Positions 8,311 through 53,458 of a DNA stretch of 64,000 nucleotides are shown here, piece after piece. Numbering within the stretch: position 1 is the first letter of the stretch; every line of letters starts with the position of its first letter. The translations under genes were made by a program, and so were the position numbers. Source of the DNA: Dehalococcoidia bacterium. GTDB taxonomy: Bacteria > Chloroflexota > Dehalococcoidia > GIF9 > AB-539-J10. The stretch lies in the NCBI GenBank assembly GCA_049671165.1, contig JBATUN010000021.1, forward strand, positions 35,623-99,622, read 5' to 3'. The notes under the pieces were generated by a model. It saw nothing but the letters and a program-made list of their open reading frames with translations, did no database searches and had not been told where the DNA came from.

Positions 8311-8625
8311 ATGGGAAAAGAAATCTCTATTTACAACCTGGCCGATGGTGTGACTGATGAGCACTACCAAGAGTACGTTAAGAATATTAAGGGCCCCTTT
8401 CTGGAGAGCCTGCCTTCGGTTAGCAAGTTCGAGCTGGTCAGGATAAAGGGGGCGGTGACGGGGGAATCCCCCTATACCTATGTCGGCATCCTGCATGTGG
8501 ACAACCTAGATGAATTCTACCAGAGAGATGTCCCATCTCAGCAATTCCAGGACTTTCTAAAGGAAGTGATGCCGATGATTAAGCAGGAAGGTTATCACAT
8601 GATGTACGGGGAGGAAATCTACTAA
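8311..8625 (+). CDS. small hypothetical protein (possibly dimeric alpha/beta-barrel-like)
   Basis: 104 aa with AGGAGG ribosome-binding site 8 nt upstream; fold assignment is a guess. Confidence 0.45.
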   Translation: MGKEISIYNLADGVTDEHYQEYVKNIKGPFLESLPSVSKFELVRIKGAVTGESPYTYVGILHVDNLDEFYQRDVPSQQFQDFLKEVMPMIKQEGYHMMYGEEIY

Positions 8626-8917
8626 TATTCGAAAGGCACTGTGTTTCGTTGGCGGCAAGGGCATGAGGCTTTGTCGGAGGATTGAGCAACTTTTGGGAAC
8701 ACATTTGACTCTCGTCACTTCTGACGACGAAGTAGGAAGGATGCAAACAAATGGTGCTCGAATTTGGTCAGCTGATGGGATATTATCTCCCGGCCCCCTC
8801 CTTGAAATGTATCCACACCTTTGTTCGCAATTCTGCCGTAGTCTGTCAAAGACCAGCCATTCCCTCGGGATTTCTGGGACGAAACGCCATCCAAGTCGAG
8901 CTCGCCAACAGAGCTAG

Positions 8918-14126: not shown

Positions 14127-14194
14127 CTGTCAAGCTTTCCGGCATGATTCTATCACGTTTTGATGATTGGGCGTTGGCGTTGTTTAAGAGCTCG

Positions 14195-14231
14195 GCGAAG
14201 CCATAGTATAATAAGGCTGTGGCCAAGGAGA
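14195..14231. repeat. 37-bp copy of the polA promoter/5' end (gcgaagccatagtataataaggctgtggccaaggag)
   Basis: 33/37 identical to 16301-16337, which includes the polA GTG start. Confidence 0.55.
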
Positions 14232-14601
14232 TTGACAACTATACAAGTCAAGAACGGTCTAAATAGGGAGCTTATTACATGGATGCTATACCTAGGGAAA
14301 TGGCTCTGCAACTGTGTGCTGAAATCCGTGAGGAGAATCGTGGTAAGTGGTATAGATTTGCTCACATGCAGTGCTTGGGGCTGCATGACCTATGCTAAAG
14401 GGAACACTGACAAGATGTGTTTAAGTAGCTAGGAAGGTTATCGTGGCTGCAATCTAATCAACAAACGCTATGTCCAACGGTCGGCGGATTGATTAGGAGT
14501 TCGGGGCAGTTGCTCTGCCCTCTCGCTAAAGCCAATTTTCGCCCTGAATAGTAAATGGCTAAAAAGTTAAAGTGGGGCAAGCAAATTAGCGGAAGTGAAT
14601 C

Positions 14602-15171
14602 ATGTTGCCTATACCAGCCTCTGAGATAGGTGTCTGGAACGCCTGGATTTTCATGCTTGTTGATGCATTAACTATTCCTGTCTTCCTGCGTATTGTTAAA
14701 AATAGACAGTCACCCTCCCCAGACAAGGCAATGGCTGGCATGTCTAGGGTTGAGAAGATAATCCTCTACGCCTCAAAGGCAATGTTTGTTCCCGCCCTGA
14801 TATACTCTATTTTCCTGCCGTTAAAATTAGGGACGATGTGGTTCTACATAGGTCTGCCAATTACTTTAATAGGGTTAATTGCAGGCGTGATGGTCTTGGT
14901 GAATTGGGCTACTACCCCACCTGATGAGCCGGTTACCAGAGGACTATATCGTTATTCCAGACATCCAATGTATGTCGCCGCTTTTTTGACGTATGTAGGG
15001 TTGGGTATAGCCTGCGCTTCGTGGGTTTTTCTGTTGTTTGCTGTTGTATTTACAGTTGTTTCGTTTGTCTATGCCGATGCTGAAGAACAGCTAACTCTTG
15101 AGATGTACGGTGACCCGTATCGTGAATATATGAATAGGACCCCAAGATATATAGGGATACCGAAATCCTAA
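14602..15171 (+). CDS. isoprenylcysteine carboxyl methyltransferase (ICMT/PEMT) family membrane methyltransferase
   Basis: YRYSRHPMYVAAFL motif; multi-TM. Confidence 0.75.
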   Translation: MLPIPASEIGVWNAWIFMLVDALTIPVFLRIVKNRQSPSPDKAMAGMSRVEKIILYASKAMFVPALIYSIFLPLKLGTMWFYIGLPITLIGLIAGVMVLVNWATTPPDEPVTRGLYRYSRHPMYVAAFLTYVGLGIACASWVFLLFAVVFTVVSFVYADAEEQLTLEMYGDPYREYMNRTPRYIGIPKS

Positions 15172-16299: not shown

Positions 16300-16300
16300 G

Positions 16301-16337
16301 GCGGAGCCATAGTATAATGAGGCTGTGGCCGAGGAAG
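16301..16337 (+). promoter_or_regulatory. polA promoter region (TATAAT at 16313-16318) running into the polA GTG start; second copy of the 37-bp repeat
   Basis: Direct repeat of 14195-14231. Confidence 0.45.
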
Positions 16338-19971: not shown

Positions 19972-20079
19972 GCATCGTAAGTCTGAGTGTATTGCCGAGG
20001 GAGTTCGATCCTGGCTCCAGACCTGCTCGATGGAATGGCCGATTGAGTTATTGATGCCGTATTGCCACGCTAACCTGAA

Positions 20080-20199
20080 ATGCCGGAGCTACCTGAGGTA
20101 GAAACGATCAGGAACGAGCTTGCGCCCTGGATCGTGGGGCAAAGCTTCGCTCAGGTCACTATCCCCGATTCTGAGCTGGTGTGTGTTGTTTTGCTATGA
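20080..20199 (+). pseudogene. fpg 5' fragment (first ~35 codons, MPELPEVETIRNELAPWIVGQSF...) ending in a premature stop
   Basis: ~85% nt identity to the 5' end of the intact fpg at 21062; 39-aa ORF. Confidence 0.7.
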
Positions 20200-20867: not shown

Positions 20868-21061
20868 ATATACCCGGACGTTCCTATCAGGTGGATAGAC
20901 TCGTCTGAAGAACCTGAAGAGCCAAGAAAGCGCAATATTGGTGTCGGGACCTGTATCGTGAATGCTAAGCTCATCAAATCCTATGTCCTTGACAAAGATA
21001 ACTTCCAGAAGGAAGTAAAGGCAGCGCTCGAGTAGAAGGGGCTCGACAGGGGGACCGAGAG

Positions 21062-21889
21062 ATGCCGGAACTGCCTGAGGTAGAGACCATCAAGAACGAG
21101 CTTGCGCCCTGGGTCGTGGGGCAAAGCTTCACCAAAGTCACTATCTCTGATGCCAAGCTGGTGTGCGGTGGTTCTGCTCAGGAAGTCCGTCGCGGATTAA
21201 TCCGGCAGAAGATAGAAAGCCTGGGACGCCGGGGAAAGTATCTCATCTTTCACCTATCGAATGGCAGGTCACTGGTTATACATCTCAGGATGACCGGCAG
21301 CTTGCTGTTAAATCCCAAAGAGGTTGACCGCTATGCCCGGGCAGTTTTTCGCCTTTCCAACGGGCACCGCCTTGTTTTCAGTGACCGGCGCCGCCTGGGG
21401 GTGCTGTGGCTGGCAGACGATGCCGGTACTGTCGTTTGTAAGCTGGGTCCCGAGCCGCTGGATAAAGCCTTCACGCCGAACGTTCTGAAGCAAAGGCTAA
21501 GCTGGCATCACATCCCGATAAAAGCCGCGCTTCTCGACCAGCGTATCGTCGCTGGAATCGGCAATATGTATGCCGATGAAGCCCTCTTTGCCGCTCGTAT
21601 TCAGCCACTGAGGAAAGCAGACGACTTGTCGCCCAAAGAAGTACGAACTTTACATAATTGCATCCGCAGGATTCTTCGGGCAGCCATCGGCAGCAAAGGC
21701 GCCAGCGTGGATACCTACGTCCGCCCCGAAGGCGAGCTGGGCACAGCCCATTTCGATTTTAAGGTTGCTCATAAGGGAGGCGAACCCTGCCCCGTTTGCG
21801 GCAGCACCATCGAGCGGGTCGTGGTGCAAAACCGCGGCACTTACTTCTGCCCCCGATGCCAACGTCTCAAACCCGGGCACTCAAAATAA
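21062..21889 (+). CDS. fpg: formamidopyrimidine-DNA glycosylase (Fpg/MutM family)
   Basis: N-terminal MPELPEVE (catalytic Pro2/Glu3), H2TH, C-terminal CxxC...CxxC zinc finger; 275 aa. Confidence 0.9.
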   Translation: MPELPEVETIKNELAPWVVGQSFTKVTISDAKLVCGGSAQEVRRGLIRQKIESLGRRGKYLIFHLSNGRSLVIHLRMTGSLLLNPKEVDRYARAVFRLSNGHRLVFSDRRRLGVLWLADDAGTVVCKLGPEPLDKAFTPNVLKQRLSWHHIPIKAALLDQRIVAGIGNMYADEALFAARIQPLRKADDLSPKEVRTLHNCIRRILRAAIGSKGASVDTYVRPEGELGTAHFDFKVAHKGGEPCPVCGSTIERVVVQNRGTYFCPRCQRLKPGHSK

Positions 21890-22033
21890 GAGCTGACGGC
21901 GGCGGGATTTGCGCCAGCGACTAAGGGCTTCCCAACGCCTTGGCTCATCCTGCCGTATCTTTACCCTATGGGTAGCCTTGCCGATCCCCCAGCAAACCAC
22001 CCCGCTATCCTCAAGCTTCACTTAGCTAGCAAG

Positions 22034-24587: not shown

Positions 24588-24751
24588 TCGAGGGCGAATT
24601 GAGCACAGCCCATTTCGATTTTAAGGTTGCTCATAGGGGAGGCGAACCTTGCCCCGTTTGTGGCGGCACCATCGAGCGGGTCCCGGTGCAGAACCGCGGC
24701 ACCTACTTTTGCGCCAGATGCCAGCCTTTGGGTCGCGGGCCTCTGATATAA
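24588..24751 (+). pseudogene. fpg 3' fragment (zinc-finger end, ...EGELSTAHFDFKVAHRGGEPCPVCGGTIERV...)
   Basis: High nt identity to 21725-21889 of intact fpg; no 5' part attached. Confidence 0.7.
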
Positions 24752-24755
24752 AAGC

Positions 24756-24811
24756 TGGCAATGGCTGGATTTGAACCAGCGATTAAGGGATTCCTAAGCC
24801 CCTGGTTCATC
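24756..24811 (-). repeat. tRNA-like 3' half (T-arm + acceptor), ~24/27 identical to the tRNA-Met 3' end at 44440
   Basis: tggcaatggctggatttgaaccagcga versus tggcagcgggtggatttgaaccaccga; a degenerate homolog follows the intact fpg at ~21899. Confidence 0.35.
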
Positions 24812-24938: not shown

Positions 24939-25427
24939 ATGTATAATTGGTGGAAAGTTGCAGAAGTCGAAGGAATCATGCCTCGACGAGAGTACGTGCC
25001 CAGTCCAATAGATACGCTTAGTCCAGAAGCAAGAAGCAAACGAATGAGCCTTGTTAAGGGGCGTGATACTAAGCCTGAGCGACATGTTCGTGAAATATTA
25101 AAGAAACTGGGCTATCGCTATCGATTACAATATTCAAGGTTACCTGGCAAACCTGATTTTGCTTTGCCTGGAAAGCGTAAGGCCATTTGGGTTCATGGGT
25201 GTTTCTGGCACCGCCATGAAAATTGCTCATTGGCTAGGTTACCTAAGGGGGGCCAGGATTTCTGGATACCGAAATTGGAGGGGAATAGGAAGCGTGATTT
25301 GGAGCATCAGGATAAAGTAAGACAAATGGGGTGGCAAATTTTGGTGATATGGGAATGCGAATTGAGCAATCAACCTTCAGTAGAATCTAAGATAAAGCAG
25401 TTCTTGGAGAATCATGAGATCAATTGA
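24939..25427 (+). CDS. vsr: very-short-patch repair endonuclease
   Basis: ARSKRMSLVKGRDTKPERHVR...WVHGCFWHRHENC; start may be an internal Met (MPRRE). Confidence 0.8.
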   Translation: MYNWWKVAEVEGIMPRREYVPSPIDTLSPEARSKRMSLVKGRDTKPERHVREILKKLGYRYRLQYSRLPGKPDFALPGKRKAIWVHGCFWHRHENCSLARLPKGGQDFWIPKLEGNRKRDLEHQDKVRQMGWQILVIWECELSNQPSVESKIKQFLENHEIN

Positions 25428-26466
25428 GTTGTTCACCGGAGCCGGTGGTTTGGCGTTGGGAATTCATTTAGCTGGATTCGAGCATCAATTACTAGTCGAA
25501 GCGGACGACGATGCCTGTGAGACGTTAGTTCATAATAGTAAAAACGAAACGGTTTCAGGAATATCGAGATGGCCAATAGTTCGCGATCTAGTTGAATTGG
25601 TTGATCTAAGCAGTTATCAGAAAATTGATTTGCTGGCCGCAGGCATTCCGTGCCAACCGTTCAGTAACGGAGGGAAGCGCGGTGGCATTGAGGACGATAG
25701 GAATATGTTTCCTGTATTCGCTAGAGTCCTTGCCGCCTTAAAGCCGCAGGCTTTTCTGCTGGAGAATGTGAACGGACTAATAAACGGCAAACTTGCAAGC
25801 CACATGGAATATATTATTTTGCAGCTACGGCATCCTTGGAATTTGGCAAGGAATGGCCAAACGTGGAAAGATCATTTAGAAGAATTGCGATACATAACTG
25901 AAAAAGATATAAGGAAAGACACGGACTATAAAGTGTATTTCCAAGTTTTGGATGCTGCCAATTATGGAATTCCGCAGATTAGGAAGCGCGTCTTCGTTGT
26001 TGGATTCCGAAGGGATTTAGAGACCAACTGGAATTTTCCGACAGCCACTCACTCAAAGGAAGCACTTTTGACCAACAATAAAAAGGCGTGGCTAACCGTC
26101 CGTGACGCCATCAGAGGTCTACCGAAGAGTGGCACCAAAGCCGCCGCCGGTATTCAACACGTTATGGTCCCTGGAGCTAGGAGCTACAAGGGACACACTG
26201 GCAGTGTCTTAGACTGGCCAGCCAAGTCATTGAAGGCTGGGAATCATGGAGTTGGGGGTGGAGAGAACACGTTACGTTATCAGAATGGTCGTGTCAGGTA
26301 TTTCACGGTAAGAGAGTGTGCGCGCTTGCAGACCTTTCCGGACTCTTGGGTATTCAAAGGACCTTGGTCCAGCGTGACAAGACAAATTGGTAACGCCGTG
26401 CCGGTAAAGATGGCTACCGTAGTGGCGAAGTCAATAAGAGAACTGTTGGGGAATTCGGTAGAATAA
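25414..26466 (+). CDS. dcm: DNA (cytosine-5)-methyltransferase
   Basis: Motif I FTGAGG, PCQPFS catalytic motif, ENV, QIGNAV; overlaps the vsr stop. Confidence 0.9.
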   Translation: MRSIELFTGAGGLALGIHLAGFEHQLLVEADDDACETLVHNSKNETVSGISRWPIVRDLVELVDLSSYQKIDLLAAGIPCQPFSNGGKRGGIEDDRNMFPVFARVLAALKPQAFLLENVNGLINGKLASHMEYIILQLRHPWNLARNGQTWKDHLEELRYITEKDIRKDTDYKVYFQVLDAANYGIPQIRKRVFVVGFRRDLETNWNFPTATHSKEALLTNNKKAWLTVRDAIRGLPKSGTKAAAGIQHVMVPGARSYKGHTGSVLDWPAKSLKAGNHGVGGGENTLRYQNGRVRYFTVRECARLQTFPDSWVFKGPWSSVTRQIGNAVPVKMATVVAKSIRELLGNSVE

Positions 26467-26478
26467 GTATAGGGATTA

Positions 26479-27609
26479 CTAGGACGACTTATTGTAACTT
26501 GGTAAGCTAACTTTAAAAACTGATTGAAAGTATTCACTCATATAGTCGTATTGACGCTTTATTGCTCCAGCATCGTTCGGAGACTGTTTCTCGCGGTCAA
26601 AGTACACCAGAATCTGTTCAAGTTGGGACAATGGTTCTTTTGTAGTCCCTGCTGCGAGTCTCTGCGATTTTTTACGAGCAGCGGTTAATTCATCGTTGAA
26701 CTGTTCAAGCGTCTGCTTGGTGAAAGGCACTGGAATACTAGATTCTTGACAAATTCGGAAGATGTGGAAGTATAGAGTCATTCTTCCCTGACTGGCTAGT
26801 AACGGGTCTTTGTGATCAAAGAATTCATTCATTTTGTCCATGATTTTGGTTGTATTGGATTGCATAGATTGTAAATGCTCGGGGGATGCCTCGGGTTGTT
26901 TCATGTCGCGATACTCGCGGAACTTAGTCACGAATTCATCTAGCATCTTTTTCTTGGTGGATTCGATGGAATTAACGTAGGTTAGATACAAGAACTTAGC
27001 CGCCAAGTCAAAGTGTTGCCTGCGTTTGTTAGTTATGCGGACTGATTGCTGGAAGAAGGCGTGGAATCCTATTTTTTGAATGACGAAGGGTAGGGGCCCG
27101 CCGAGAGCGTTTCGTCTTTCACCAGCACTAAGTGATACTTGTATATTGAGGCGTGAGAAAAGGTCATCAATGAAGTCTGTGTCATCTGTTTGAACGACTG
27201 TGACTGGTAAGTCGAAGCCATCAAACCGAGCACGCAAGCGAGGGAACTTAGACATTAGCTCATCATATTTAGCCCCTCCAGCTTCTATGGACTCATCGTC
27301 ATAGAAGATGAAGTTTTTGGGAAGAGATAGTTCATTTTCCATGAATCTCCACAAGGAATATAGACGTTGTTTGCCGTCAATAACGGCATACCTGTATTTG
27401 CCAGTCTGGTTAGGCGTTGGCGGAATCTGATAAAAATATAGCTTAGGGACATCAAAGCCGTTAAGTATGGAATCAATGAAACATTGCTGTTGCCCTTCAT
27501 CCCAGATCGAAAAACGTTGGTAGGGGGGGTCAAGGTCAATCTGGTCTTTCCATTCATACAATTGTAATATATTGTTTGCCCTCAACGGGTACATTTTGAA
27601 GCGTGGCAT
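26479..27609 (-). CDS. DUF262 (ParB-like nuclease superfamily) protein, candidate restriction/defense nuclease
   Basis: DPPYQRFSIW...IDGKQRL motifs at the N-terminus. Confidence 0.7.
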   Translation of the reverse strand: MPRFKMYPLRANNILQLYEWKDQIDLDPPYQRFSIWDEGQQQCFIDSILNGFDVPKLYFYQIPPTPNQTGKYRYAVIDGKQRLYSLWRFMENELSLPKNFIFYDDESIEAGGAKYDELMSKFPRLRARFDGFDLPVTVVQTDDTDFIDDLFSRLNIQVSLSAGERRNALGGPLPFVIQKIGFHAFFQQSVRITNKRRQHFDLAAKFLYLTYVNSIESTKKKMLDEFVTKFREYRDMKQPEASPEHLQSMQSNTTKIMDKMNEFFDHKDPLLASQGRMTLYFHIFRICQESSIPVPFTKQTLEQFNDELTAARKKSQRLAAGTTKEPLSQLEQILVYFDREKQSPNDAGAIKRQYDYMSEYFQSVFKVSLPSYNKSS

Positions 27610-28499
27610 TAGTCACCTCCCAGAAGATCTTTTGCTTCTCTGGCGACATTGTCAAGTTCTGGGAAAAGTATTCTTCTATTAACTCCGATTCTTCCAAGCT
27701 CCTGATATATCGGTTCTTTGTGTTCTTGAGGTATCTTATATCTCCAGATATGCGTGCCATCCTTGAGCGCCTGTTCGACCGGAGTTTTATTATTGACATG
27801 ATGTATAGTGAAAACGCTCATTTGCACCTGCATACGGCGGTTAGTGCGTGGCGCTATACCCGCAGCGGGCAATCGGCCGGGAGGCAAATCCTCACTGATT
27901 GTTGTTGGCAGATAAAGGTCAATTGTCTCACCTGCACCGCGTGAGACTTCTTCTGGATTGCCAGAAAGCATCGGAAGCGTGTAATCGTCATTTGGCCATT
28001 TAAGTGAAACAACATTAAGACGATTCGGTAGCAAACACCATAAGACACCGTCATCGGCATATGGATTTTTAGGGTCTTCTCTTGGATAGACGGCGAAGTA
28101 TAAGGCTACCAAAGGATTTTCGGTCCAATCAAGCAAGCGTGAAGGCGCCTTATGATGACGCATGAGAAACATCCACTCCCATATGCTGTTGGGAATTTGG
28201 GCAAGGATTTCGTGTGCATTCTGTTTAAACAGGTTCATGAGATAAATTTCGTCCTTGATATCAACCTTGCATTCCTTCCTATAGAAGGTGGGTAATAATT
28301 TGCGGCTGATTTTTCTCAAGCCCCTATACCAAATCGGAGGTTTAGAGTAGTTACCTTTAAGAGGGGTCTCACCTGCAGGATGTTGCCTAGAAGTACGTTT
28401 TGGCTCAAGCGCCTCGCGTAATCTCTCCTCATCTTTCTGTAATGCAGCTAATAAGTCGGCGACGCTCGTTATTTTATCTTCATCAAAAAGGTAGGCCAT
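27609..28499 (-). CDS. FRG-domain protein
   Basis: IWYRGL...LLPTFYR and ...HHKAPSRLLDWTENPLVALYFAV match the FRG-domain core. Confidence 0.6.
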   Translation of the reverse strand: MAYLFDEDKITSVADLLAALQKDEERLREALEPKRTSRQHPAGETPLKGNYSKPPIWYRGLRKISRKLLPTFYRKECKVDIKDEIYLMNLFKQNAHEILAQIPNSIWEWMFLMRHHKAPSRLLDWTENPLVALYFAVYPREDPKNPYADDGVLWCLLPNRLNVVSLKWPNDDYTLPMLSGNPEEVSRGAGETIDLYLPTTISEDLPPGRLPAAGIAPRTNRRMQVQMSVFTIHHVNNKTPVEQALKDGTHIWRYKIPQEHKEPIYQELGRIGVNRRILFPELDNVAREAKDLLGGD

Positions 28500-28873: not shown

Positions 28874-29210
28874 TTGACAGAAAGCCTACCTCAAATTATT
28901 ATCTTCTGTTTCTAATAGCTTCCATTACCGAAAGAAGAACTCCGACACCTATGAGAGAGTAACCTATCGCACGAGAATCACCGAAGATAATCCCCAGAAC
29001 CACTAAGGACATACCAAGTATAGCGAGGTTTGATGGTTGTTGATATTGCCTTCCCCTGGCTATAAGCAGAAGAACCACAATAACAACCAGGGCAATGATT
29101 GAAATGGTTATCCACACGGGTTCCATGAATACCTCCTTTTAGAAGTACTGGCTACTTTCAAAAATTATAGCACTGAGGGCAAAGAGAAGATGTATTATTG
29201 CCAGGGAAAA
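28874..29210. repeat. ~335-bp direct repeat R1 (carries the small membrane-protein gene)
   Basis: ~90% identical to 31166-31500. Confidence 0.7.
28899..29126 (-). CDS. small two-TM membrane protein (75 aa)
   Basis: MEPVWITISIIALVVIVVLLLIARG...; paralog at 31188. Confidence 0.55.
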   Translation of the reverse strand: MEPVWITISIIALVVIVVLLLIARGRQYQQPSNLAILGMSLVVLGIIFGDSRAIGYSLIGVGVLLSVMEAIRNRR

Positions 29211-29354: not shown

Positions 29355-30929
29355 TCACGGAGTGCTGGCTACAAACTTCTTTTTATCCTTTTTACAGATA
29401 ATTTGTATCGTATGCCGACCCGACATAACCGCCGTAGGCATTCCGCCGCCCGGATTGACCCACTGCCCGGCCATGTAGAAATTGTCAAGTCCCGGCAGAG
29501 TCTTGCTCATCTGCATCATGAGAGTCTTGGGGGTAATCATCCATCCTTCATAGCTGCCCTTCCAGTTACCGGTATAACGTACCCATGTCATCGGAGTAGC
29601 TACGTCACGCATCTCTACCTGGGCTGCCAGTCCCGGAAAGCGCTTATCGAGAAGGGCAACCACCGTATCTGCTATCTGCTCTTTCTCCGCTTTATATCGT
29701 TCGGGCTCTTTGTATAACCTCTCCCAGTAATCGTAATCCGTATTGAACTGGACCTTGACCACGGTCTTGCCCTCCGGCGCCAGGGTGGGGTCGAAATTGT
29801 AAATGAGTACGCCGAGTGTTTTCTGTGCTTTGCCGGCAATAGTTACGGGTTTCTCCAGAGGGAAAGTAAGACCGCCTACCGAGGGCGGCACATCATCGAA
29901 TTTACGAGCCACTCCCAGGCCGATATATACCAGCGGTGGAAACAATTGGAGATTGTCATAATAGCCGCGTATCTTGTCATCGATGTATTTACCATCCAGC
30001 ATATCGAAAATGGTGGTATGACCATCGGCGGCAGAGATAACGATGTCGCCCCGGTGTTCCGTACCATCCGCCAGCCTTGTGCCTACAGCTTTATCGTTTT
30101 CTACCAGTACTTTTTCTACCCTTGCCTTGAGATGCAGTTTGCCGCCAAGGTCAAGGTAGCGTCGCTGAATATAGCTGACAAGGGCCAGGGCGCCGCCGAT
30201 GACATAGCCGGCTGCCTGCTGGTGTTGCCAGGCAAGCATCATCGGCATGGTTATCGCGGGCATGTCGGCGAAGTCATCCTCGGGATCTACGTTGACAACT
30301 TTACGAAGTAAGGGGTTTTTAAAGCGCTGAGCGAAATCGGCCGTGCGAATTTCAGCCCACTTTCGTATGAACCTTAAATAAGGCAGCATTTTGACCGTCT
30401 TGATGCCATCGATTAGGCTATAAAGCTCCTGGGGCTTATCTACAGGCATGTCGGATCGAGCGAGATAGCGTATTGCTTTGGTGAACTCGCGGATGACCGC
30501 TTCATCCTCGGGGGCAAATTCCATCATCTGCTGTTCGAGGCGGTTGACATCGGAATACATGTTAAAAACCTTACCACTTTCATCTTCAATGATAGTGAAC
30601 TGGTCAAGATTGATAACTTTCCACTGCTGCGCCGCCCCAAGCTCTTCCCACAACTTGTAAAAGCTGGTTCCCGGTTTGGTGCCCACCAGCCAGTTCATTG
30701 CGCCATCAATGGTGTAGCCCTTGCGTTGCCAGCCGGTGCATACCCCGCCAGCCTTATCATGCATCTCAAAAACAGACGTACGGTAACCGTTCATCCGACC
30801 GTAGCACCCCGCCGCCAGACCGGTGAGTCCACCCCCGATGATGATTATTGACTTTTCCACATTTCTTCCTTTTCGGCTTAGATTATTAACAGGATAGTGC
30901 ATGCTATATTGATGTCTGCTAATTGTCAA
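29355..30929 (-). CDS. FAD/NAD(P)-binding oxidoreductase, phytoene-desaturase (CrtI) family
   Basis: IIIIGGGLTGLAAGCYG Rossmann motif near the N-terminus; ~524 aa. Confidence 0.8.
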   Translation of the reverse strand: MTISRHQYSMHYPVNNLSRKGRNVEKSIIIIGGGLTGLAAGCYGRMNGYRTSVFEMHDKAGGVCTGWQRKGYTIDGAMNWLVGTKPGTSFYKLWEELGAAQQWKVINLDQFTIIEDESGKVFNMYSDVNRLEQQMMEFAPEDEAVIREFTKAIRYLARSDMPVDKPQELYSLIDGIKTVKMLPYLRFIRKWAEIRTADFAQRFKNPLLRKVVNVDPEDDFADMPAITMPMMLAWQHQQAAGYVIGGALALVSYIQRRYLDLGGKLHLKARVEKVLVENDKAVGTRLADGTEHRGDIVISAADGHTTIFDMLDGKYIDDKIRGYYDNLQLFPPLVYIGLGVARKFDDVPPSVGGLTFPLEKPVTIAGKAQKTLGVLIYNFDPTLAPEGKTVVKVQFNTDYDYWERLYKEPERYKAEKEQIADTVVALLDKRFPGLAAQVEMRDVATPMTWVRYTGNWKGSYEGWMITPKTLMMQMSKTLPGLDNFYMAGQWVNPGGGMPTAVMSGRHTIQIICKKDKKKFVASTP

Positions 30930-31138: not shown

Positions 31139-31172
31139 ATGAAACCGTTAGTAGTTTATTATTCTTTGACAG
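31139..31172 (+). pseudogene. flavodoxin 5' fragment (MKPLVVYYSLT) fused to repeat R2
   Basis: 29/34 nt identical to the start of the flavodoxin gene at 31903. Confidence 0.45.
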
Positions 31173-31500
31173 AAAGCCTACCTCACATTATTGTTTTCTG
31201 TTTCTAATAGCATCAATTACTGAAAGAAGAACTCCGACACCTATGAAAGAGTAACCTATCAGACGATCATCACCGAAAATAATCCCCAGCACCACAAAGG
31301 ACAGGCCAACTATAGCGAGGTTTGAGGGTTTATGATATCGCTTTCCCCTGGCTATAAGCAAAAGCACCACAATAACAACCAGGGCAATGATTGAAATGGC
31401 TATCCACACGGGTTCCATGAATACCTCCTTTTAGAAGTACTGGCTACTTTCAAAAATTATAGCACTGAGGGCAAAGAGAAGATGGATTATTACCACGGAA
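31166..31500. repeat. ~335-bp direct repeat R2
   Basis: Pairs with 28874-29210. Confidence 0.7.
31188..31418 (-). CDS. small two-TM membrane protein (76 aa), paralog of 28899-29126
   Basis: ~85% aa identity to its paralog. Confidence 0.55.
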   Translation of the reverse strand: MEPVWIAISIIALVVIVVLLLIARGKRYHKPSNLAIVGLSFVVLGIIFGDDRLIGYSFIGVGVLLSVIDAIRNRKQ

Positions 31501-44439: not shown

Positions 44440-44511
<72 letters not shown>

Positions 44512-45251: not shown

Positions 45252-45937
45252 GTGAAGGAATCCTTTCCTTCACAAGTTCAAGTTGTAGCAGAGGGAATGG
45301 ATACTCTGTCCTCAAAATGAGGTATTATCCACATCTTAAGGGCATGGTTTATGGCACCATACAAATCATTCCCTGAAAAAGAGCACCTCTATTTTGTGAC
45401 TAGCTCAATTGTTGGTCACAAATACCTTTTTCACAAGCCCGAGTATGCTCAAATCATTCTTGATAGCTTGAGCTTCCTGCGAAGTCAGAGGAGAATTAAG
45501 CTTTATGCTTTTGTAATAATGCCTAACCATTTCCACTTGATTATCAAAGTACTTGGTGCTTCTAATATCTCGAAATTAGCCCACGACCTCAAACTATTTA
45601 CAGCAAATCAAATTATTAAGAGGTTGCAGACAAATAGAGAATTGCATTTGCTGGATTATTTTAAGCAGCAAGCCAAGGGCATTAAAAAACAGAAGCACAA
45701 AGTTTGGGAAACTGGATTTTGGGACAAAAACATCTTTTCGGAAAAATTTCTGCAAGAAAAGATGGAATACATTCACAACAACCCAATCAATAAGAACTGG
45801 TGTCTAGTTGAAGAGAGGTCAGAGTACCCTTTTTCCAGCGCCCGGTTTTATGACAAAGGAAAAGAGGCCATTGTTGATATTGATGATGTCCGAGAACTCG
45901 TGTGCTAATATGCTGGCGGGAATCCTTTCCCGCCAGC
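45252..45937 (+). mobile_element. IS200/IS605-like minimal element or REP/RAYT unit: tnpA flanked by hairpins sharing the core GGAATCCTTTCC
   Basis: Hairpins 45252-45273 (gtgaagga-atcctt-tccttcac) and 45912-45937 (gctggcggga-atcctt-tcccgccagc). Confidence 0.6.
45351..45908 (+). CDS. tnpA: Y1 HuH transposase (IS200-like / REP-associated tyrosine transposase)
   Basis: VIMPNHFHLII HuH motif; C-terminal EYIHNNP catalytic-Tyr motif. Confidence 0.75.
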   Translation: MAPYKSFPEKEHLYFVTSSIVGHKYLFHKPEYAQIILDSLSFLRSQRRIKLYAFVIMPNHFHLIIKVLGASNISKLAHDLKLFTANQIIKRLQTNRELHLLDYFKQQAKGIKKQKHKVWETGFWDKNIFSEKFLQEKMEYIHNNPINKNWCLVEERSEYPFSSARFYDKGKEAIVDIDDVRELVC

Positions 45938-46856: not shown

Positions 46857-48113
46857 ATGAAGAACTATGACATTAAAGACTCTTCCCTAGCCCGAGAGGG
46901 CAAACTTCGCATTGACTGGGCTGACAAGGAAATGCCAGTCGTCAGGCGAATAAGGACAAGATTCCGCAAAGAAAGACCCCTGGCGGGAGTACGTATTTCT
47001 GCTTGCCTCCATATCACCACAGAAACAGCCAATTTAGCTCTGGCTTTGAAAGCAGGTGGGGCTGAAGTAGTCCTGTGTGCCTCCAATCCTTTGAGTACCC
47101 AGGACGATGTAGCTGCTGCCCTGGTGGACTATGGCATTCCCGTCAACGCCATAAAGGGAGAGGATAATAAGACTTACTACAAACATATCATAACCGCCCT
47201 GAAACATGAGCCACAGATTACTATGGACGATGGGGCAGACCTGGTTTCCACCCTTCATAAAGACTACACCAAACTGGCTGCTAACGTCATTGGCGGCACC
47301 GAGGAAACCACCACGGGAGTCATCAGGCTGAGGAACATGGCCAGGGATGGCAAGTTGATTTATCCTATTGTCGCCGTGAACGATGCACAAACTAAACATT
47401 TATTTGACAATAAATATGGAACGGGACAAAGCGCAATTGATGGCATCACCAGGGCTACCAATATACTCTGGGCGGGGAGGAAAGTGGTTGTTTGTGGCTA
47501 TGGCTGGTGTGGCAGGGGAATAGCCAGGCGGGCTCAAGGGCTAGGAGCGCACATTATCATCACCGAGGTGCAGCCTATCCCGGCTCTGGAAGCGGCCATG
47601 GATGGCTATCAGGTGATGCCTCTGATCAAGGCGTGTGAGATAGGAGAGGTCTTCATCACCGCCACGGGCGATATGAACGTCATTGATAAGGCACACATTT
47701 CGAGGATGAAAGACGGGGCTATTCTGGCCAATAGCGGCCACTTCAACGTAGAAATAAATATCGCAGCCCTGGAAAGCCTGGCCAAATCGAAGAAGCGAAT
47801 ACGTTCTTCCGTTGATGAGTACACTTTGGGCGATGGACGGCGTATCTATCTGCTAGGCGAGGGCAGGTTAATCAATCTAGCCGCTGCCGAGGGACACCCG
47901 GCTAGCGTTATGGACATGAGCTTTGCCAACCAGGCTCTATGTCTAGAATATCTCACCAAGATGAAGGGAAAACTTAAGCCTGCGGTCTATCCTGTACCTG
48001 AAGAAATTGACCAGGAGGTAGGTAAACTGAAGCTCGCCTCTATGAATATCGCCATTGATTCTCTGACCAGGGAGCAGAAAAAATACCTGGAAAGCTGGGA
48101 AGAAGGAACATAG
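46857..48113 (+). CDS. ahcY: adenosylhomocysteinase
   Basis: NAD-binding GYGWCGRG segment and conserved SAH-hydrolase blocks. Confidence 0.95.
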
Positions 48114-48125
48114 AAAGGAGTAAGA

Positions 48126-49340
48126 ATGCCGAATAGCTTTAACCAGTCGGATTCCTATTTAGCCACTGCGGAGTGCGTCACCGAGGGACATCCTGATAAG
48201 CTGTGCGACCAGATTTCAGACGCTATCCTCGACGCCATGCTGGAACAGGACCCCTTTGCCCATGTAGCCTGCGAAGTCTCTGTGGCCATGGGCATGGTCA
48301 TAGTTCTTGGTGAGGTTACCTGCAAGGGTTACGTGGAGATTCCGGACATCGTGCGCCAAGTAATCAAAGAGGCAGGCTATACCAAACCTGAATATGGCTT
48401 TGATTATCGGACCTGTGGAATCATGGTTTCCCTCAAGGGACAGTCAAGCGACATTGCTGCCGGAGTTGATCAATCTTTGGAAACAAGAACAGGAGAGGCA
48501 ACCGACGAAGTCTTAGACAAAACCGGCGCCGGTGACCAGGGAATGATGGTTGGCTTTGCCTGTAGAGAAACACCTGAGCTCATGCCTTTGCCTGTTGCAC
48601 TGGCGCACAAGCTATGCCGGCGCTTGGCTCAGGTAAGAAAAGAGGGGATCGTGCCTTATCTGAGGCCCGATGGTAAGTCCCAGGTGACTATAGAATACAC
48701 CCGTGGCATACCCAAGAGGGTGGTCTGTGTTGTTATCGGTGCTCATCACGACCCGGGAGTGGAACGTAAAATTATGGAGCATGACCTTATAGAGCAGGCG
48801 ATTAAGAAGGTCATTCCTGCCAACTTGCTGGATAACGAGACTGAATACTACATCAACAGCGCCGGCCAGTTTGTCATCGGTGGGCCGGTGAGCGACACCG
48901 GTTTCACCGGGCGCAAAATCATTGCCGATACTTACGGCAGTGCCTGTGGACATGGTGGAGGCTCTTTTTCAGGCAAAGACCCTACTAAGGTAGACCGCTC
49001 CGCTGCTTATATGGCTAGATATGTTGCCAAGAATATTGTAGCTGCCGGACTTGCTGATTACCTCGAGCTTCAGGTTGCCTATACTATCGGAAAAGCTTAT
49101 CCCCTGTCATTATCCATCGAGACATTCAGCACAGGACAGGTCCCTGATGAAGTCATATCAAATCTCGTCAACAAGCATTTCGACTTCCGTCCCGAGGCTA
49201 TCATAAGGACTTTGGACCTGCGCCGGTCTATTTACCGCCAAACTGCTACTTATGGACACTTCGGCAGAGAAGACCTCGACTTTCCCTGGGAGAGAACGGA
49301 TAAGGCCGAAATCCTAAGAAAAGAAGCGGGCCTGCAATAG
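48126..49340 (+). CDS. metK: S-adenosylmethionine synthase
   Basis: [24 protein letters not shown]. Confidence 0.95.
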
Positions 49341-49371
49341 CCCAGACCACAGGACGGAGTCAAGACCCCCC

Positions 49372-49388
49372 GCAGGACCATGTCCTGC
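49372..49388 (+). terminator. weak hairpin after metK (gcaggac-cat-gtcctgc)
   Basis: 7-bp stem; no clear U-tract. Confidence 0.25.
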
Positions 49389-49603
49389 CTTAATAATTCA
49401 TCAGTTCGTGCATTGCTAAGATTACGTATGTTTGAGCATAATGTGGTACATAATGTGGTATAATTGGAAGGCTAACCTAGAACCTCAATGGGCACCTGAG
49501 TGATCGGGAGTGAACCAGTGTGGACAAAGCTGTTATAGCGTGCCTCTATCTTAACTGCTCGGAGGCGGACTTTGTGTTTTTGTATTTGGCGAGATGAGGT
49601 CAC

Positions 49604-50557
49604 ATGAGTTTGATACAGGTGGATGATTTAGCCAAAAGTTATGGCAGGGTGGTTGCTGTGGATGGGCTCTCTTTGAGGGTGGAGGAGGGCAGCATTATGG
49701 GGCTCATAGGTCCCAACGGCGCTGGAAAAACCACCGCAATAAAGATAATCTTGGGCTTGCTTAAGCAGGATAGGGGGTTTGTCAGGGTTTTTGACGAGGA
49801 ACCATGGGACAACCCGGATATCAAACCGAAGATAGGAGTAATCTATGAAAGAGCCTACTTCCCATCCCGTCATAAGGTATTCGACTACCTGAAGAGGGTG
49901 TGTAGGATCTTTGGCAAACCTGAGTCCCGAGCCCGTGAAGTTTTAGCTTTGACGAGACTTGAGGATGCCCATGACAGAACCATAAAAGCGTTGTCGGCCG
50001 GGATGCTCCAAAAGTTCGCCGTAGCCCATGCCCTGATCAAAGAGCCGCGTCTCATCATTGCTGATGAACCTACATCAAACCTTGACCCTGAGGCCAGGAG
50101 AGAGTTGTTAGATTTAATCCTGAAACTTCACCGCGACGAAAATGTAACTTTTCTCATCTCCTCGCACGTACTTCCTGAGTTGAGCAGAGTTTGTGAATCC
50201 GTGGCGATAATTAATGAGGGCAAGGTCTGGGCCGCGGGAAGCTTGACGGAACTTTCGGAGAAGCTTGGAACCAGAACTACGAGGATAGCTACTGATAATC
50301 CTGAGGCGCTTGGAGAGCTGGTAAGAAAACTGGAATATGTTAACCGGGTGGAAGTAGATAGCAGGGGAGTTTCTGTAGGTGTGCTTGCCGGCGAAGATGA
50401 AAGGCTTTACGAAGACGTTCCCAGACTTGCTAAGAAAGCAGAGGCCAAAATTGTGGGAATAGAGACCGGAACTGCTTCCCTTGAAGAACTCTTTAGACTG
50501 GCCGTTAAGTCCGGACAAGGAGAAGGTCATAGATGGGAAAAGGCCGACCATTCTTAG
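49604..50557 (+). CDS. ABC transporter ATP-binding protein
   Basis: Walker A GPNGAGKTT, LSAGMLQK signature, Walker B IIADEPT. Confidence 0.9.
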   Translation: MSLIQVDDLAKSYGRVVAVDGLSLRVEEGSIMGLIGPNGAGKTTAIKIILGLLKQDRGFVRVFDEEPWDNPDIKPKIGVIYERAYFPSRHKVFDYLKRVCRIFGKPESRAREVLALTRLEDAHDRTIKALSAGMLQKFAVAHALIKEPRLIIADEPTSNLDPEARRELLDLILKLHRDENVTFLISSHVLPELSRVCESVAIINEGKVWAAGSLTELSEKLGTRTTRIATDNPEALGELVRKLEYVNRVEVDSRGVSVGVLAGEDERLYEDVPRLAKKAEAKIVGIETGTASLEELFRLAVKSGQGEGHRWEKADHS

Positions 50558-51336
50558 AAATCTTCACCTATGCCCTCGATGAAGATTACAGGTTCCCGAT
50601 CCTGGAGATTTTTGCTTTCCTTTTCGCACTGGGGACATTTGTCTTCGCGGATTTTGCGTTGTTATACGGCCAGACTGGAGAAGCCCTCGCGTACAGCTTG
50701 GTTAGCACTTTATGTGGATTTCCGCTTTTGTTCATCTTTGTGGTCTTAATTCTAAAGAACGTGGCCTACGGTCTGGGTGGCGATTTGGACAAAGGTGTGA
50801 TGCAAACCCTGTTCTCATATCCTTTGAAGAGGCGATACATTCTCACGGCAAAACTTCTCTCAGGTTTAGGCATAGCGTTGCTCTTATTCTTGGGAATCCA
50901 GATTTTTGGTCTCTTTCTGTTAGCCCCGAATGTCATTCTCACCTATCCCGGCACGGTTTTCTTGACCTATGCTGCTAATCTCTGTAGCCCGGCACTTTTG
51001 CTGGCTGGTCTCGTGCTGCTTTTGACTTTACGACTGAAACGAGGGGGACTCGCTGTCGTCATCGGATTCGTTCTTTTCCTTGCGGGGTTGGTAGTCTCTG
51101 GATTGGTGACCTCCATCGCTTACGGAACAGGCTCCGATGTGGCCCTAAAAATCTGGGCTGTAATCAACCCTAACTCAGCTCTCCAGTATTATCATATGGG
51201 CGCAGTAGGTTTTCCCTCTGAAACTTGGGTTCCGAGCTTTTCCGAGGTCCTCATTTACTTGGGGGCAGGATACCTGATCGTGGCTGCGATTTTCACCGCT
51301 GGATACATCTACTTCGAGAGGAGATTGGAAATATGA
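50533..51336 (+). CDS. ABC-2-type transporter permease
   Basis: Six hydrophobic segments; overlaps the ATPase stop. Confidence 0.6.
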   Translation: MGKGRPFLEIFTYALDEDYRFPILEIFAFLFALGTFVFADFALLYGQTGEALAYSLVSTLCGFPLLFIFVVLILKNVAYGLGGDLDKGVMQTLFSYPLKRRYILTAKLLSGLGIALLLFLGIQIFGLFLLAPNVILTYPGTVFLTYAANLCSPALLLAGLVLLLTLRLKRGGLAVVIGFVLFLAGLVVSGLVTSIAYGTGSDVALKIWAVINPNSALQYYHMGAVGFPSETWVPSFSEVLIYLGAGYLIVAAIFTAGYIYFERRLEI

Positions 51337-52019
51337 GGTGGATAACTCTGCTGGGGAGAATAGGCACCGTAATTTTAGCGATAGGCTTAGCTCTCCTCAT
51401 CGCCTGGCTCATCCCCTCAGGTAGCGGATCTTGGTCTGGGTGGAGTCAGCCTATCGAGCCTGAACAATATATAATTGAGAGGTTAGGGGTTTATTCGCCT
51501 CAAACTGGATTTCAAATCTCCGTGGAGTCTACCGATAACATCCGCGTTTATCTCCTCGGAGTAAACTCAGTTGAACTCGATAACTGGAGAACATCGGTTA
51601 GGGAGGCATATCCTGATTTAGATGATATGTGGATTAGAATCTTTACCGTGCCGCTGATTTTTGTTAGGGAAGCATATCCCGATTTAGATGATCCTCAAAT
51701 CGAGGATATCATGGATATCGTGTGGAACGTATCCGTCTTAGACAAGGGTCTGCAAACACACCCTGAGATTATCTTGTGGGACCCGCCTCCGAGCAGCTCG
51801 TTTTCCCACGAGTTGTTTCCAGCGGATACCCTTGACATCATGGCCGTAGTTGCCAATCCATCCTCTAATACGGTGGAAGTCGAAACGAGGATAACGGATT
51901 TAACAGCGCTCGCACCAAAAGAGAGGGTTATCCTCCCAGCCATATTGCTCATTTCAATAGGCATTGCGTTAGCCATTCCATGGTTAATCTCGAGAAAAGT
52001 AAAAAAGAGCACCTTCTGA
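51333..52019 (+). CDS. hypothetical exported/membrane-anchored protein; start reassigned to ATG 51333 (ATGA overlap with the permease stop)
   Basis: MRWITLLGRIGTVILAIGLALLIAWL signal/TM; C-terminal TM; internal REAYPDLDD duplication. Confidence 0.5.
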   Translation: MRWITLLGRIGTVILAIGLALLIAWLIPSGSGSWSGWSQPIEPEQYIIERLGVYSPQTGFQISVESTDNIRVYLLGVNSVELDNWRTSVREAYPDLDDMWIRIFTVPLIFVREAYPDLDDPQIEDIMDIVWNVSVLDKGLQTHPEIILWDPPPSSSFSHELFPADTLDIMAVVANPSSNTVEVETRITDLTALAPKERVILPAILLISIGIALAIPWLISRKVKKSTF

Positions 52020-52074
52020 TAGAGGGCAACTTTCGTCTTGGGTACCGTAAAGACATTAGGTTTGCGACGCCCCA

Positions 52075-52182
52075 TTTACCGCCAAACTGCTACCTATGGA
52101 CACTTTGGGAGGGAAGACCTCGACCTTCCCTGGGAGAGAACGGATAAGGCCGAAATCCTAAGAAAAGAAGCAGGCTTGTAGA
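52075..52182 (+). pseudogene. duplicated metK 3' end (~36 codons, ...[35 protein letters not shown])
   Basis: ~93% nt identity to 49231-49340. Confidence 0.75.
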
Positions 52183-52261
52183 AGTCCCAACCATCCTCAC
52201 CAGCCGTGTTGAAGTTACCAGTAGGGGGGCAAGGAGATTTGGGTAATGATAATCCAGCTTC

Positions 52262-53458
52262 TCAAACCTGGTGTGTTCTACCACAATGTGGGCACTTGAT
52301 TTGTGGGTCTTTGAAGCGAGGTGGCACCCGTAACTTGGCACCGCAGTCACATGTGATGGTGTTGTAGTTGCTCAGCCGCCACATTACATCTGAGGTCTCG
52401 CGAGCCTGCTGTACCTCATTTAGTTCACCTGCTTCACCCTCCAGTCTTGTTGTTGCTATCGGGACTGTTGCGGCGGCAAGACTGGCGGCGGGTATAACCC
52501 CTTTACCTCCATGGACCTGGCGGTAAACCTGGTCATAATCGTTAAAGGAAGCACCGGCCATGGCACGCAGGATGCGTATCCTCTCTGATATAGGGGGGTG
52601 GGTGCCGGTGAGATCGCTGGCTTTCAAGCCTTTCTTGCGGAAAGGATTGACGATATACATAGGGGCTGTGGCCTTATTGGCTGATTTCAATTGCCCCGTT
52701 GAGGCACCCAGCTTTTCCAGGGCTGAGGCCAGTCCTTCAGGGTATCTGGTGTAGAGGGCCGCCGAGGCATCTGCCAGGTATTCTCTCTTCCGAGAGATGG
52801 CGAAGTAGATAAGCTGCGCAAAAATCGGCGCCAGTATCATAAATACAAGTCCCACGATCAGAATTATTAACTGAGCTCCCCCACCGCCTCCTGATGATGA
52901 GCTTCTTCTTGACCCGGCGCCGCCAAAAATCAGGAAGCGCGATCCGTACCAGGCCAGGATGACGATGGTGCCGAGCAGGACACCGCACATCGCCATGAGC
53001 AGTACATCCTGGTTCTTGATATGGGATATCTCGTGGCCAATGACCCCCTGCAATTCGTCGCGGTTCAGTTTTTGTAGCAGTCCCGAGGTGATAGCTACGG
53101 ATGCCTTATTGGGGTTACGACCGGTGGCGAAGGCATTCAGTGCTGGGTCGTCAATGATGTATATGTCAGGCATCTTCTCCAGGCCGGAGGCAATCTTCAT
53201 CTCCTCAACCACATTGTACAGACGGGGGTGGTCATCACGACTAATTTTCTTCGCCCTCGACATGCCGAGCAGTATACTATCACCCTGGAAATAGGCAGCC
53301 AGACTCAAGATCACCCATAATAATATGGCGATGACCAAGCCCGTGATAGCGCTATCGAAGTACAGGCCCAGGAAATAGCCGATGAGGATCAGCAGTGCTC
53401 CCATGCCTATTGTCAGCACTACCGACCTTATCTGGTTAGACCTAATCTGTTCCCACAC
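52262..53458 (-). CDS. htpX: M48-family zinc metalloprotease HtpX homolog with C-terminal zinc ribbon
   Basis: HEISH (HExxH), multi-TM, C-terminal CDCG...CPHCG. Confidence 0.85.
   Translation of the reverse strand: MWEQIRSNQIRSVVLTIGMGALLILIGYFLGLYFDSAITGLVIAILLWVILSLAAYFQGDSILLGMSRAKKISRDDHPRLYNVVEEMKIASGLEKMPDIYIIDDPALNAFATGRNPNKASVAITSGLLQKLNRDELQGVIGHEISHIKNQDVLLMAMCGVLLGTIVILAWYGSRFLIFGGAGSRRSSSSGGGGGAQLIILIVGLVFMILAPIFAQLIYFAISRKREYLADASAALYTRYPEGLASALEKLGASTGQLKSANKATAPMYIVNPFRKKGLKASDLTGTHPPISERIRILRAMAGASFNDYDQVYRQVHGGKGVIPAASLAAATVPIATTRLEGEAGELNEVQQARETSDVMWRLSNYNTITCDCGAKLRVPPRFKDPQIKCPHCGRTHQV

Follow-up and report, generated by a model that had tools for sequence, protein, structure and literature searches.

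A three-gene ABC-transporter cassette between metK and a copied metK 3′ end in uncultured Dehalococcoidia: a probable relic of insertion-duplication

In a stretch of 64,000 nucleotides (nt) from a Dehalococcoidia bacterium (assembly GCA_049671165.1, contig JBATUN010000021.1, positions 35,623 to 99,622; hereafter the window), the S-adenosylmethionine synthetase gene metK is followed by a 2.7-kb insert with three cargo genes and then by a second, fragmentary copy of its own 3′ end. We consider this locus, with a probability of roughly 0.55, to be the eroded product of a Campbell-type insertion-duplication, in which a circular DNA carrying the cassette together with a metK end would have crossed over once with a resident metK. 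The gene content is as the initial annotation of this DNA had described it, with the ATPase of an ATP-binding cassette (ABC) transporter, an ABC-2-type permease and a small third protein lying between the two copies (Table 1). The MetK protein places the window among uncultured Dehalococcoidia, and the locus provides a well-sampled case in which accessory genes have been added beside an essential gene in these streamlined bacteria without visible mobile-element machinery. We refer to the segments of the repeat as zones A, B and C in the copy that belongs to the intact gene (the proximal copy) and as A′, B′ and C′ in the copy beyond the cassette (the distal copy), and to the junction between native flank and cassette DNA as site O. 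Loci used for comparison are designated by L numbers.

Repeat detection found a single long direct repeat between 47 and 54 kb, which pairs 49196-49349 with 52040-52193. Within it, 52074-52175 and 49230-49331 align without gaps and are identical at 96 of 102 positions (94.1%; BLAST E 1.8e-40), so the copy of the metK terminus noted earlier after the cassette is real. Over the full span first proposed for it (111 nt, to the stop region), 101 positions are identical. Six of the seven codons that differ before the stop region do so synonymously, the two copies share a 46-nt identical block, and no second comparable match to the metK end is present within the 64-kb window. To the left of this high-identity stretch the resemblance to metK falls to about 62–65% in zone A′, which reaches back to about 52026 and in which a 2-nt deletion breaks the reading frame. 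The cassette ends on its right 8 nt past the stop codon of the third gene, all copies have an identical joint between that gene and the fragment, and no k-mer shared with metK was found at this join.

The duplication had initially been given as about 108 bp. The repeat is present, but the block that was duplicated was at first considerably longer. In many occupied genomes both copies continue through the stop codon and zone C as far as site O, and the longest fragments begin at metK codon ~329 (L132, L103 and L094), with shorter versions beginning at ~352. From these longest fragments we conclude that the repeat measured about 300 nt at first, comprising metK from about codon 329, the stop codon and a 3′ flank of about 65 nt that ends at site O. 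The distal copy in the window keeps about 11 nt of zone C and has lost the remainder of C′ together with the right-hand site O, a deletion of the distal flank that it has in common with L092, L109 and L118. Further deletions and truncations of the fragment arose independently in relatives (L083/L125, L126/L105 and L085/L089), and such a multiplicity of independent deletions is as expected of a relic. A translated or functional metK fragment was considered and rejected, given the frameshifts and the many independent deletions; its frame relative to the third gene is also inconsistent (0 in the window, +1 in L086, L087 and L092).

A metagenome scan with the permease yielded 70 loci. Of these, at least 23, which are independent contigs from metagenomes or metagenome-assembled genomes (MAGs), have the order PHP-ahcY-metK-cassette-metK fragment, and the MetK proteins of these contigs are 84–95% identical to that of the window; relatives are visible through flanks of 8–10 kb. 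In the NCBI assemblies of L083 and L264 the cassette occupies the same position between metK and htpX. L264 retains the metK fragment after the cassette, and the fragment of L083 has lost zones A and B. The insertion is old and lineage-wide rather than a private or recent event of this genome, and an assembly artefact is excluded because JGI, ENA and NCBI together supply more than 20 independent contigs with this layout.

Cassette-free metK junctions in relatives, which the initial annotation had proposed to look for, do exist. Loci L155-160 (MetK 94% identical) have metK followed by a zinc-finger protein, a DEAD helicase, BipA and NYN, and loci L161-164 (MetK 90%) have metK followed by NYN, htpX and lemA; a third unoccupied target site, in L265, has dodecin downstream of metK. 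The same spot also holds other cargo accompanied by metK-end copies of its own. In L165 this cargo is an acetyl-CoA hydrolase with its own metK-end copy, in L261-263 it consists of two tandem units encoding Glug proteins with a metK fragment after each, in L001 it is a protein of the metallo-β-lactamase fold together with VapBC, and in the distant L063 it is a DUF2075-like ATPase together with an enzyme of the formylglycine-generating enzyme (FGE) type. The fragments that accompany these other cargoes have differing 5′ limits and the same 3′ limit at site O; the 5′ limit lies at codon ~329 or ~352 for the ABC cassette, ~365 for the Glug units and ~345 for L165. At least eight alternative contents are thus known for the stretch that follows metK, which makes it a hot spot. 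As a side observation, the NYN gene of L161 is bracketed by a 13-nt repeat matching the metK stop region (8211-8223 and 9424-9436), which suggests that an event of this kind brought in the NYN gene as well and that little is left of its fragment.

The segments on either side of zone B appear to have different origins. A′ has an identical 2-nt deletion and substitutions in about 20 loci, and since every class-1 copy of the cassette has it, even at loci away from metK, it belongs to the cassette. The flank adjoining the cassette is of the CCTGyC type in 24 of 28 cases, and of the 21 flanks beside downstream sequence like that of L155, among them those of empty sites, 20 are of the CCCGGC type. 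Furthermore, in seven of nine genomes the distal flank is nearer than the proximal flank to the flank of the empty sites. Flank types and distal-flank similarity together imply that the distal flank lay to the right of the crossover; the exchange would have taken place between A′ and this flank, that is, inside coding stretch B. They indicate that the proximal flank probably came in with the cassette and that the distal piece is in part cassette-linked and in part derived from the host. A segment that is duplicated, with the left part of its distal copy and the right part of its proximal copy linked to the insert, is the signature of a Campbell-type event. With respect to the earlier proposal that an element-borne end reconstitutes metK, the incoming DNA does seem to have supplied the sequence after metK, but that it also completed metK itself is only probable. 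Likewise, the description of the insertion as bounded by a duplicated metK end is supported at this locus, although the fragment also accompanies the cassette to loci that are not beside metK.

We compared the metK end with the fragment of the same genome in 18 non-redundant genomes. The mean identity was 0.9325, as opposed to 0.889 ± 0.006 when the pairs were permuted, and 0 of 10000 permutations reached the observed value. The two copies are 100% identical in L113 and in L116, and in the distant L144 they are 95% identical, with a fragment that is at most 84% identical to all others. In the window, B′ matches contig L138, which is 97.4% identical, over an initial 48 nt and a terminal ~15 nt, and in the middle ~45 nt (52122-52171) it matches the window's own metK, with nine differences from L138 in this part. 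These matches show that the 93–94% identity is that of a mosaic, in which a tract of about 45 nt was overwritten from metK by gene conversion. Zone B is still about 94% identical, with mostly synonymous differences, because the functional gene has repeatedly overwritten it. Copy identity is therefore no clock and cannot tell which copy is original, and under active gene conversion a repeat identity of 93–94% with synonymous differences is uninformative on the age of the insertion. The initial suggestion that the original copy be found by comparing divergence cannot work, given that the copies evolve in concert and that the fragment of the window is a mosaic.

The left boundary of the cassette is precise. 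At the empty sites metK is natively followed by a flank of about 65 nt (zone C) that ends in CTTAACAA-TTCGTCAn-nTTGTK. In relatives the consensus of site O is CTTAACAA-TTCGTCAn-nTTGTGC, an imperfect inverted repeat with a dyad AACAA/TTGTT around 8–9 nt. Flank C with site O occurs 75 times and is followed by at least 20 different right-hand sequences, of which 14–17 of 20 have TTGT at +3 to +6 after CGTCA; conservation is at background by +8. In the window, site O is the only match to a position weight matrix that scores above shuffled sequence (23.0, against a maximum of 19.3).

At least seven contexts in which no metK is adjacent also hold the unit of cassette and fragment (L081; L093 and L094; L108 and L120; L126 and L106; L104; L082; L089 and L119). 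Those copies that have an intact left end are opened at site O, such that they are circular permutations of the layout at metK, and the permuted copies in L081 and similar loci point to a circular intermediate. Immediately past the stop codon of a zinc-finger DEAD-box helicase gene there is an almost identical site, TAACAATTAGCCA-nn-TTGTGCA, which is followed by the cassette in L081 and by two other sequences in L108 and L093. Because the junction is nucleotide-precise and multi-way, a site-specific process acting in trans is suggested, and an enzyme of this kind probably places and moves cargo at site O. If the motif is a recombination site, a trans-acting recombinase working on chromosomal cassettes would be implied. 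The precise junction motif is the part of the locus most deserving of follow-up. More tentatively, uncultured Dehalococcoidia might possess a chromosomal cassette system in which units of one to three genes, themselves free of integrase genes, are joined to the nucleotide at a dyad-symmetric site of about 20 bp (TAACAATTCGTCA-NN-TTGTGCA) by a recombinase encoded elsewhere, the site lying just downstream of housekeeping genes (metK and the DEAD-box helicase) and the end of the neighboring gene also permitting homologous entry.

Two of the loci away from metK have further features. Just upstream of the cassette in L093 there are two sequences resembling site O, 145 nt apart (2718-2734 and 2863-2879), the first of which is identical to the helicase-linked variant ACAATTAGCCATTTTGT; the pair may represent a minimal unit between two sites. 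In L104, inverted copies of a MarR-family gene (123-713 and 8429-9019) bracket the cassette together with about 5 kb of SMC-like ATPase genes and unknown genes.

A history that would produce the present locus can be outlined as follows. Cargo would have come to lie at site O beside metK in some lineage, and a circular DNA would have formed that consisted of the three-gene ABC cassette, the metK 3′ end, zone C and site O. This circle would then have crossed over once with a naive resident metK, inside zone B. The product would be a completed metK followed by incoming sequence, then the cassette, and then a fragment composed of the cassette's A′ and the right part and flank of the host copy. The event may have taken place in the ancestor of this clade of uncultured Dehalococcoidia and have been followed by vertical inheritance with some transfer between lineages, and later by occasional excision or movement, amplification by unequal crossover (as in the Glug units), lineage-specific deletions and homogenization by gene conversion. 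The locus in the window has since lost its distal flank and the right-hand site O, which leaves recombination between the two 102-nt copies of B as the only way in which the cassette could be lost. The crossover itself was most likely one of ordinary homologous recombination, which is favored because the 5′ limits of the fragments vary by cargo type and because no integrase is present. Cargo can itself carry repeated gene ends, and these can serve as a handle of homology.

Several observations weigh against this history. The 5′ limits of the fragments all lie 8–115 nt upstream of the conserved ATTTACCGCC, and random breakpoints might have been expected to scatter more widely; so short a scatter leaves room for a site-specific core inside metK. 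Neither a circle nor a donor arrangement (metK, flank, site O and cassette without a fragment) was directly observed. The linkage of flank types is a trend from which L101 and L113 depart, and it is open to blurring by gene conversion. The precision of site O and the units that are not adjacent to metK are beyond what homologous recombination could explain by itself. In addition, our tblastn search for recombinases in the window and 171 loci (~2 Mb), which gave a single match, in the unrelated L059, relied on three queries only (E. coli XerD, IntE and PinE), which divergent enzymes could escape, and on flanks seen for 8–10 kb.

The other searches agree in finding no recombinase. With Pfam, no integrase was detected in the cassette, in the rest of the window or in the tested neighbors of site O. 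The genes next to site O encode PIN proteins, SMC-like ATPases, MarR, Hypoth_Ymh and Glug proteins, with one sub-threshold radical-SAM match and zero recombinases. None of six cargo types, and none of about 100 clade loci, has an integrase, and among these ~100 loci there is also no autonomous relative using the same site, whether an integrative and conjugative element (ICE), an integrative mobilizable element (IME) or a prophage. The L059 match is a XerD-like tyrosine recombinase (14064-14906) about 3 kb downstream of metK in a Thermomicrobiales MAG, and its proximity to metK is probably coincidental.

One rival reading is integration by an integrase at the metK 3′ end, as in e14 and phage 21 at icd, with the metK end, from a fixed crossover core to past the stop codon, carried on the attP of the element and the element's own tyrosine or serine recombinase lost later. 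An intact target gene and a displaced 3′-end fragment are present as direct repeats, as this model requires, and the proximal flank is linked to the cassette. In e14 of E. coli K-12, the displaced icdC pseudogene is by our computation 92.7% identical to the final 165 nt of icd, with 2 amino-acid changes, which resembles what is seen here. Moreover, no copy departs from ATTTACCGCC where zone B begins, and the independent fragments all begin no more than ~115 nt upstream of it. We nevertheless find this model unlikely, as integrases are absent from all six cargo types and the ~100 clade loci, the cargo is tiny (1–3 genes) with ends as tight as the 8 nt that follow the last stop codon, and the fragments differ in 5′ limit between cargo types. 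Furthermore, where the cassette lies away from metK, its right-hand neighbor is the fragment, and the unit is opened at site O instead of at a core within metK. It is also doubtful, for other reasons, that metK was uninvolved and that the unit of insertion was the cassette with A′B′C′ between two sites O, moved by a trans-acting recombinase (Xer-like or other) after a single capture of the fragment. The nucleotide-precise junction with its 20 or more followers and the recurrent TTGT speak for such a process, as do the seven or more other contexts in which the unit is always opened at site O, the near-identical site after the DEAD-box helicase with its different occupants, and the uniform joint between the third gene and the fragment, which fits one capture. 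The flank types at metK are, however, the reverse of those expected, being cassette-type proximally and host-type distally. In addition, the Glug, acetyl-CoA hydrolase, L001 and L063 cargoes each have a metK-end copy of their own, contrary to what a single rare capture predicts, the right-hand site O is absent in the window, no candidate enzyme was found, and site O agrees with the predicted dif of Dehalococcoides at only 15 of 28 positions.

A tandem duplication of the metK end in situ that was filled later, or a chimeric or collapsed assembly of two strains, would explain the locus without any insertion event of the kind proposed. The assembly is of the metagenome type, and the 46-nt identical block could permit a switch between strains. 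Yet more than 20 independent assemblies, made in different projects, show the layout, A′ has strongly diverged from metK and is still kept among cassette copies, the fragment goes with the cassette to loci without metK, and the join of cassette and fragment, as noted above, has no k-mer in common with the gene. These comparative data effectively refute both versions, and we regard them as highly improbable.

With respect to known systems, Campbell-type integration is the principle of suicide vectors, in which a circle recombines by a single crossover with the chromosomal fragment that it carries. It predicts a flanking duplication, an arbitrary 5′ limit, mosaic copies, instability, amplification and gene conversion, as proposed for metK. 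However, it is a laboratory principle and not a described natural cassette system, and it leaves the precision of site O and the copies away from metK unexplained. The likeness to e14 and phage 21 at icd consists in an intact housekeeping gene, an insert after its last ~50 codons and a displaced copy at the far end, and in copies (92.7% identical at icd, 94% at metK) with nearly all differences synonymous. In contrast to the metK cassette, which has no recombinase and only three cargo genes, e14 carries intE, xisE and pinE; a further difference is that the repeat at metK passes the stop codon to a fixed site in the 3′ flank and that the left part of its distal copy belongs to the insert. Cis-mobilizable elements (CIMEs) at the 3′ end of fda in Streptococcus thermophilus, like other island remnants that lack an integrase, consist of cargo between attachment repeats derived from a gene 3′ end and lack integration and transfer genes of their own. 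They adjoin or derive from recognizable ICEs that use the same site, have repeats of tens of nucleotides and may form tandem arrays. The metK cassette is likewise flanked by repeats and without genes for recombination or transfer, and the tandem units of L261-263 are comparable, but no parent element was found for it and its repeat is about 300 nt.

Other published systems show more partial parallels. Xer-exploiting integrative mobile elements (IMEXs), which insert at dif, and the pdif modules of Acinetobacter plasmids (PMC5357621, PMC5790767, PMC7399989) are discrete modules without a recombinase that are bounded by a short dyad-symmetric site and occur in several contexts, as the cassette does; site O is not readily recognizable as an 11-6-11 XerC/D site, and its directly repeated copies persist within a few kb. 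Nearer in taxonomy are the ssrA-linked islands of Dehalococcoides and Dehalogenimonas, which are about 23 kb long and have repeats of 11–25 bp, a recombinase and replication genes (PMC13390414). They belong to the same class of bacteria and lie downstream of a conserved gene between direct repeats of its end, but the repeats at metK were about 300 nt, the recombinase is absent and the insert is 2.7 kb. None of the papers found names metK as an integration site.

We also compared site O with other classes of site. It matches the predicted dif of Dehalococcoides (Kono 2011 supplement) at 15 of 28 positions, that dif being itself a prediction, and several direct copies within a few kb argue against a canonical dif, so that an identity of the two is of low probability. 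A location in the replication terminus, as expected of IMEXs at the chromosomal dif, is only hinted at: the cumulative guanine-cytosine (GC) skew peaks at 52–54 kb and genes converge at 52.2 kb, but skew goes with the coding strand, and the visible stretch is limited to 64 kb. An attC site of an integron was rejected, as site O and its flank have no RYYYAAC ... GTTRRRY cores and the window has no integrase. An origin as a repetitive extragenic palindromic (REP) sequence with its REP-associated tyrosine transposase (RAYT), an idea raised by an open reading frame (ORF) at 45351-45908 that resembles a Y1 transposase, was dismissed because site O is single-copy in the 64-kb window. A scan of viral contigs for site O returned 93 matches, by our estimate about the number that the size of the collection would give by chance, none of them with similarity to metK or its flank.

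Table 1. Features of the metK locus (positions in the window; an empty cell means that nothing was recorded)
Feature	Position	Strand	Basis or remark
ahcY	46857-48113		Directly before metK
metK, S-adenosylmethionine synthetase, 404 amino acids (aa), intact	48126-49340	+	Pfam: three S-AdoMet_synt domains
Zone A, metK codons ~353-368, counterpart of degenerate A′	49182-49229	+	Alignment
Zone B, proximal copy: final 36 metK codons and stop, high-identity repeat	49230-49340	+	
Zone C, native-type metK 3′ flank	49341-49388	+	Aligned with empty sites L155 and L161
Terminator-like hairpin GCAGGAC-CAT-GTCCTGC	49372-49388		In zone C
Site O, CTTAATAA-TTCATCAG-TTCGTGC	49389-49411	+	Fixed junction of native flank and cassette DNA
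Cassette leader	49412-49603	+	Promoter scan, BLAST mapping
ABC transporter ATPase, 317 aa	49604-50557	+	Pfam ABC_tran, E 1.7e-26
ABC-2-type permease, 267 aa	50533-51336	+	Homologs carry PF12679 ABC2_membrane_2
Third cassette gene, 228-aa membrane protein	51333-52019	+	Hydrophobic N- and C-termini; always linked to the two ABC genes
Zone A′, degenerate frameshifted metK-derived segment	52026-52073	+	Joined to cassette right end in all contexts
Zone B′, distal copy: promoterless metK fragment, final 35 codons and TAG at 52179-52181	52074-52184	+	
Gene-conversion tract in B′	52122-52171	+	Three-way comparison with metK and L138
Host-side junction	52182-52261	+	Aligned with L161, L090, L118, L092 and L109; BLAST to empty sites
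htpX-like M48 peptidase, host gene convergent with metK	52262-53458	-	Pfam Peptidase_M48; synteny with L161-164, L083 and L264

At the end of metK the usual stop codon TAA has become CAA and the TAG that follows is used (49335-49340), which gives a protein of 404 residues; most MetK homologs have 403. A few relatives share the CAATAG variant, as does L117 in its distal fragment. The leader of the cassette is kept in every context where the cassette occurs, and the promoter scan identified in it a promoter-like sequence, TTGCTA-18-CATAAT, at 49413-49442; a local 12-nt tandem duplication precedes TATAAT. The ATPase is 88–98% identical at the amino-acid level in relatives. The permease itself gave zero Pfam matches, and its homologs are named by JGI as the permease of an ABC system for multi-copper-enzyme maturation. 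The third protein likewise has zero Pfam matches and belongs to no known family; its gene contains an internal in-frame 66-nt tandem duplication (at 51597 and 51663; 30 nt at 93%), which is also found in L138. In the host-side junction, ~11 nt similar to the beginning of flank C run without a break into the sequence bordering the 3′ end of htpX, and lemA comes after htpX. The only Rfam match between 44 and 54 kb was tRNA-Met; the flank and the leader gave neither a riboswitch nor a small RNA.

The closest homologs of the cassette outside the clade (P0063, P0080, P0095 and P0112; L134-L147) have the same gene order and a permease identity of 53–64%, and they include proteins of Bathyarchaeia MAGs, which hints at transfer of the cassette between archaea and Dehalococcoidia. 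In L083 (GCA_964586515.1), two small genes (4820-5557; 79 aa, and 141 aa with HTH_36) separate ahcY from metK, two genes that are neighbors everywhere else in Chloroflexota.

The initial annotation had seen the same footprint at repeats near fpg and the tRNA gene. The motif of site O is absent from those repeats, and a mechanism shared with metK is unsupported. Upstream of the tRNA-Met gene (44440-44511, minus strand) there are six partial copies of its 3′ end (21894, 24756, 38308, 38848, 42396 and 43011), which delimit small gene blocks in which no integrase was seen by eye; they have the appearance of old insertions arrayed at the end of the tRNA gene. The fpg 3′ end and a 3′ fragment of tRNA-Met make up a 223-nt direct repeat (80%; 21727-21949 and 24589-24811), which brackets a radical-SAM gene and a gene for a 394-aa membrane protein; like the repeat at metK, it includes the end of a neighboring gene. 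Three more direct repeats enclose single genes. One (20077-20191 and 21059-21173) is a copy of the fpg 5′ end, and a 36-nt repeat (14194-14229 and 16300-16335) is a copy of the polA start region. A 300-nt repeat (92%; 28874-29173 and 31166-31465) flanks a 524-aa ORF on the minus strand (29355-30929) that by eye resembles a flavin oxidoreductase.

The Y1 ORF mentioned above is IS200-like (Pfam Y1_Tnp) and lies between the KTI12-like kinase gene and the PHP gene. It occupies the same place in L261 and L262 and is absent in L155, L161 and L083, which makes it a polymorphic insertion of a single gene, perhaps a domesticated one of the RAYT type. The region 24939-28499 has by eye the look of a defence island, with a Vsr-like endonuclease, a cytosine methyltransferase and DUF262-like and FRG-like proteins; its GC content is low (0.44–0.46), and its GC skew is opposite to the coding strand.

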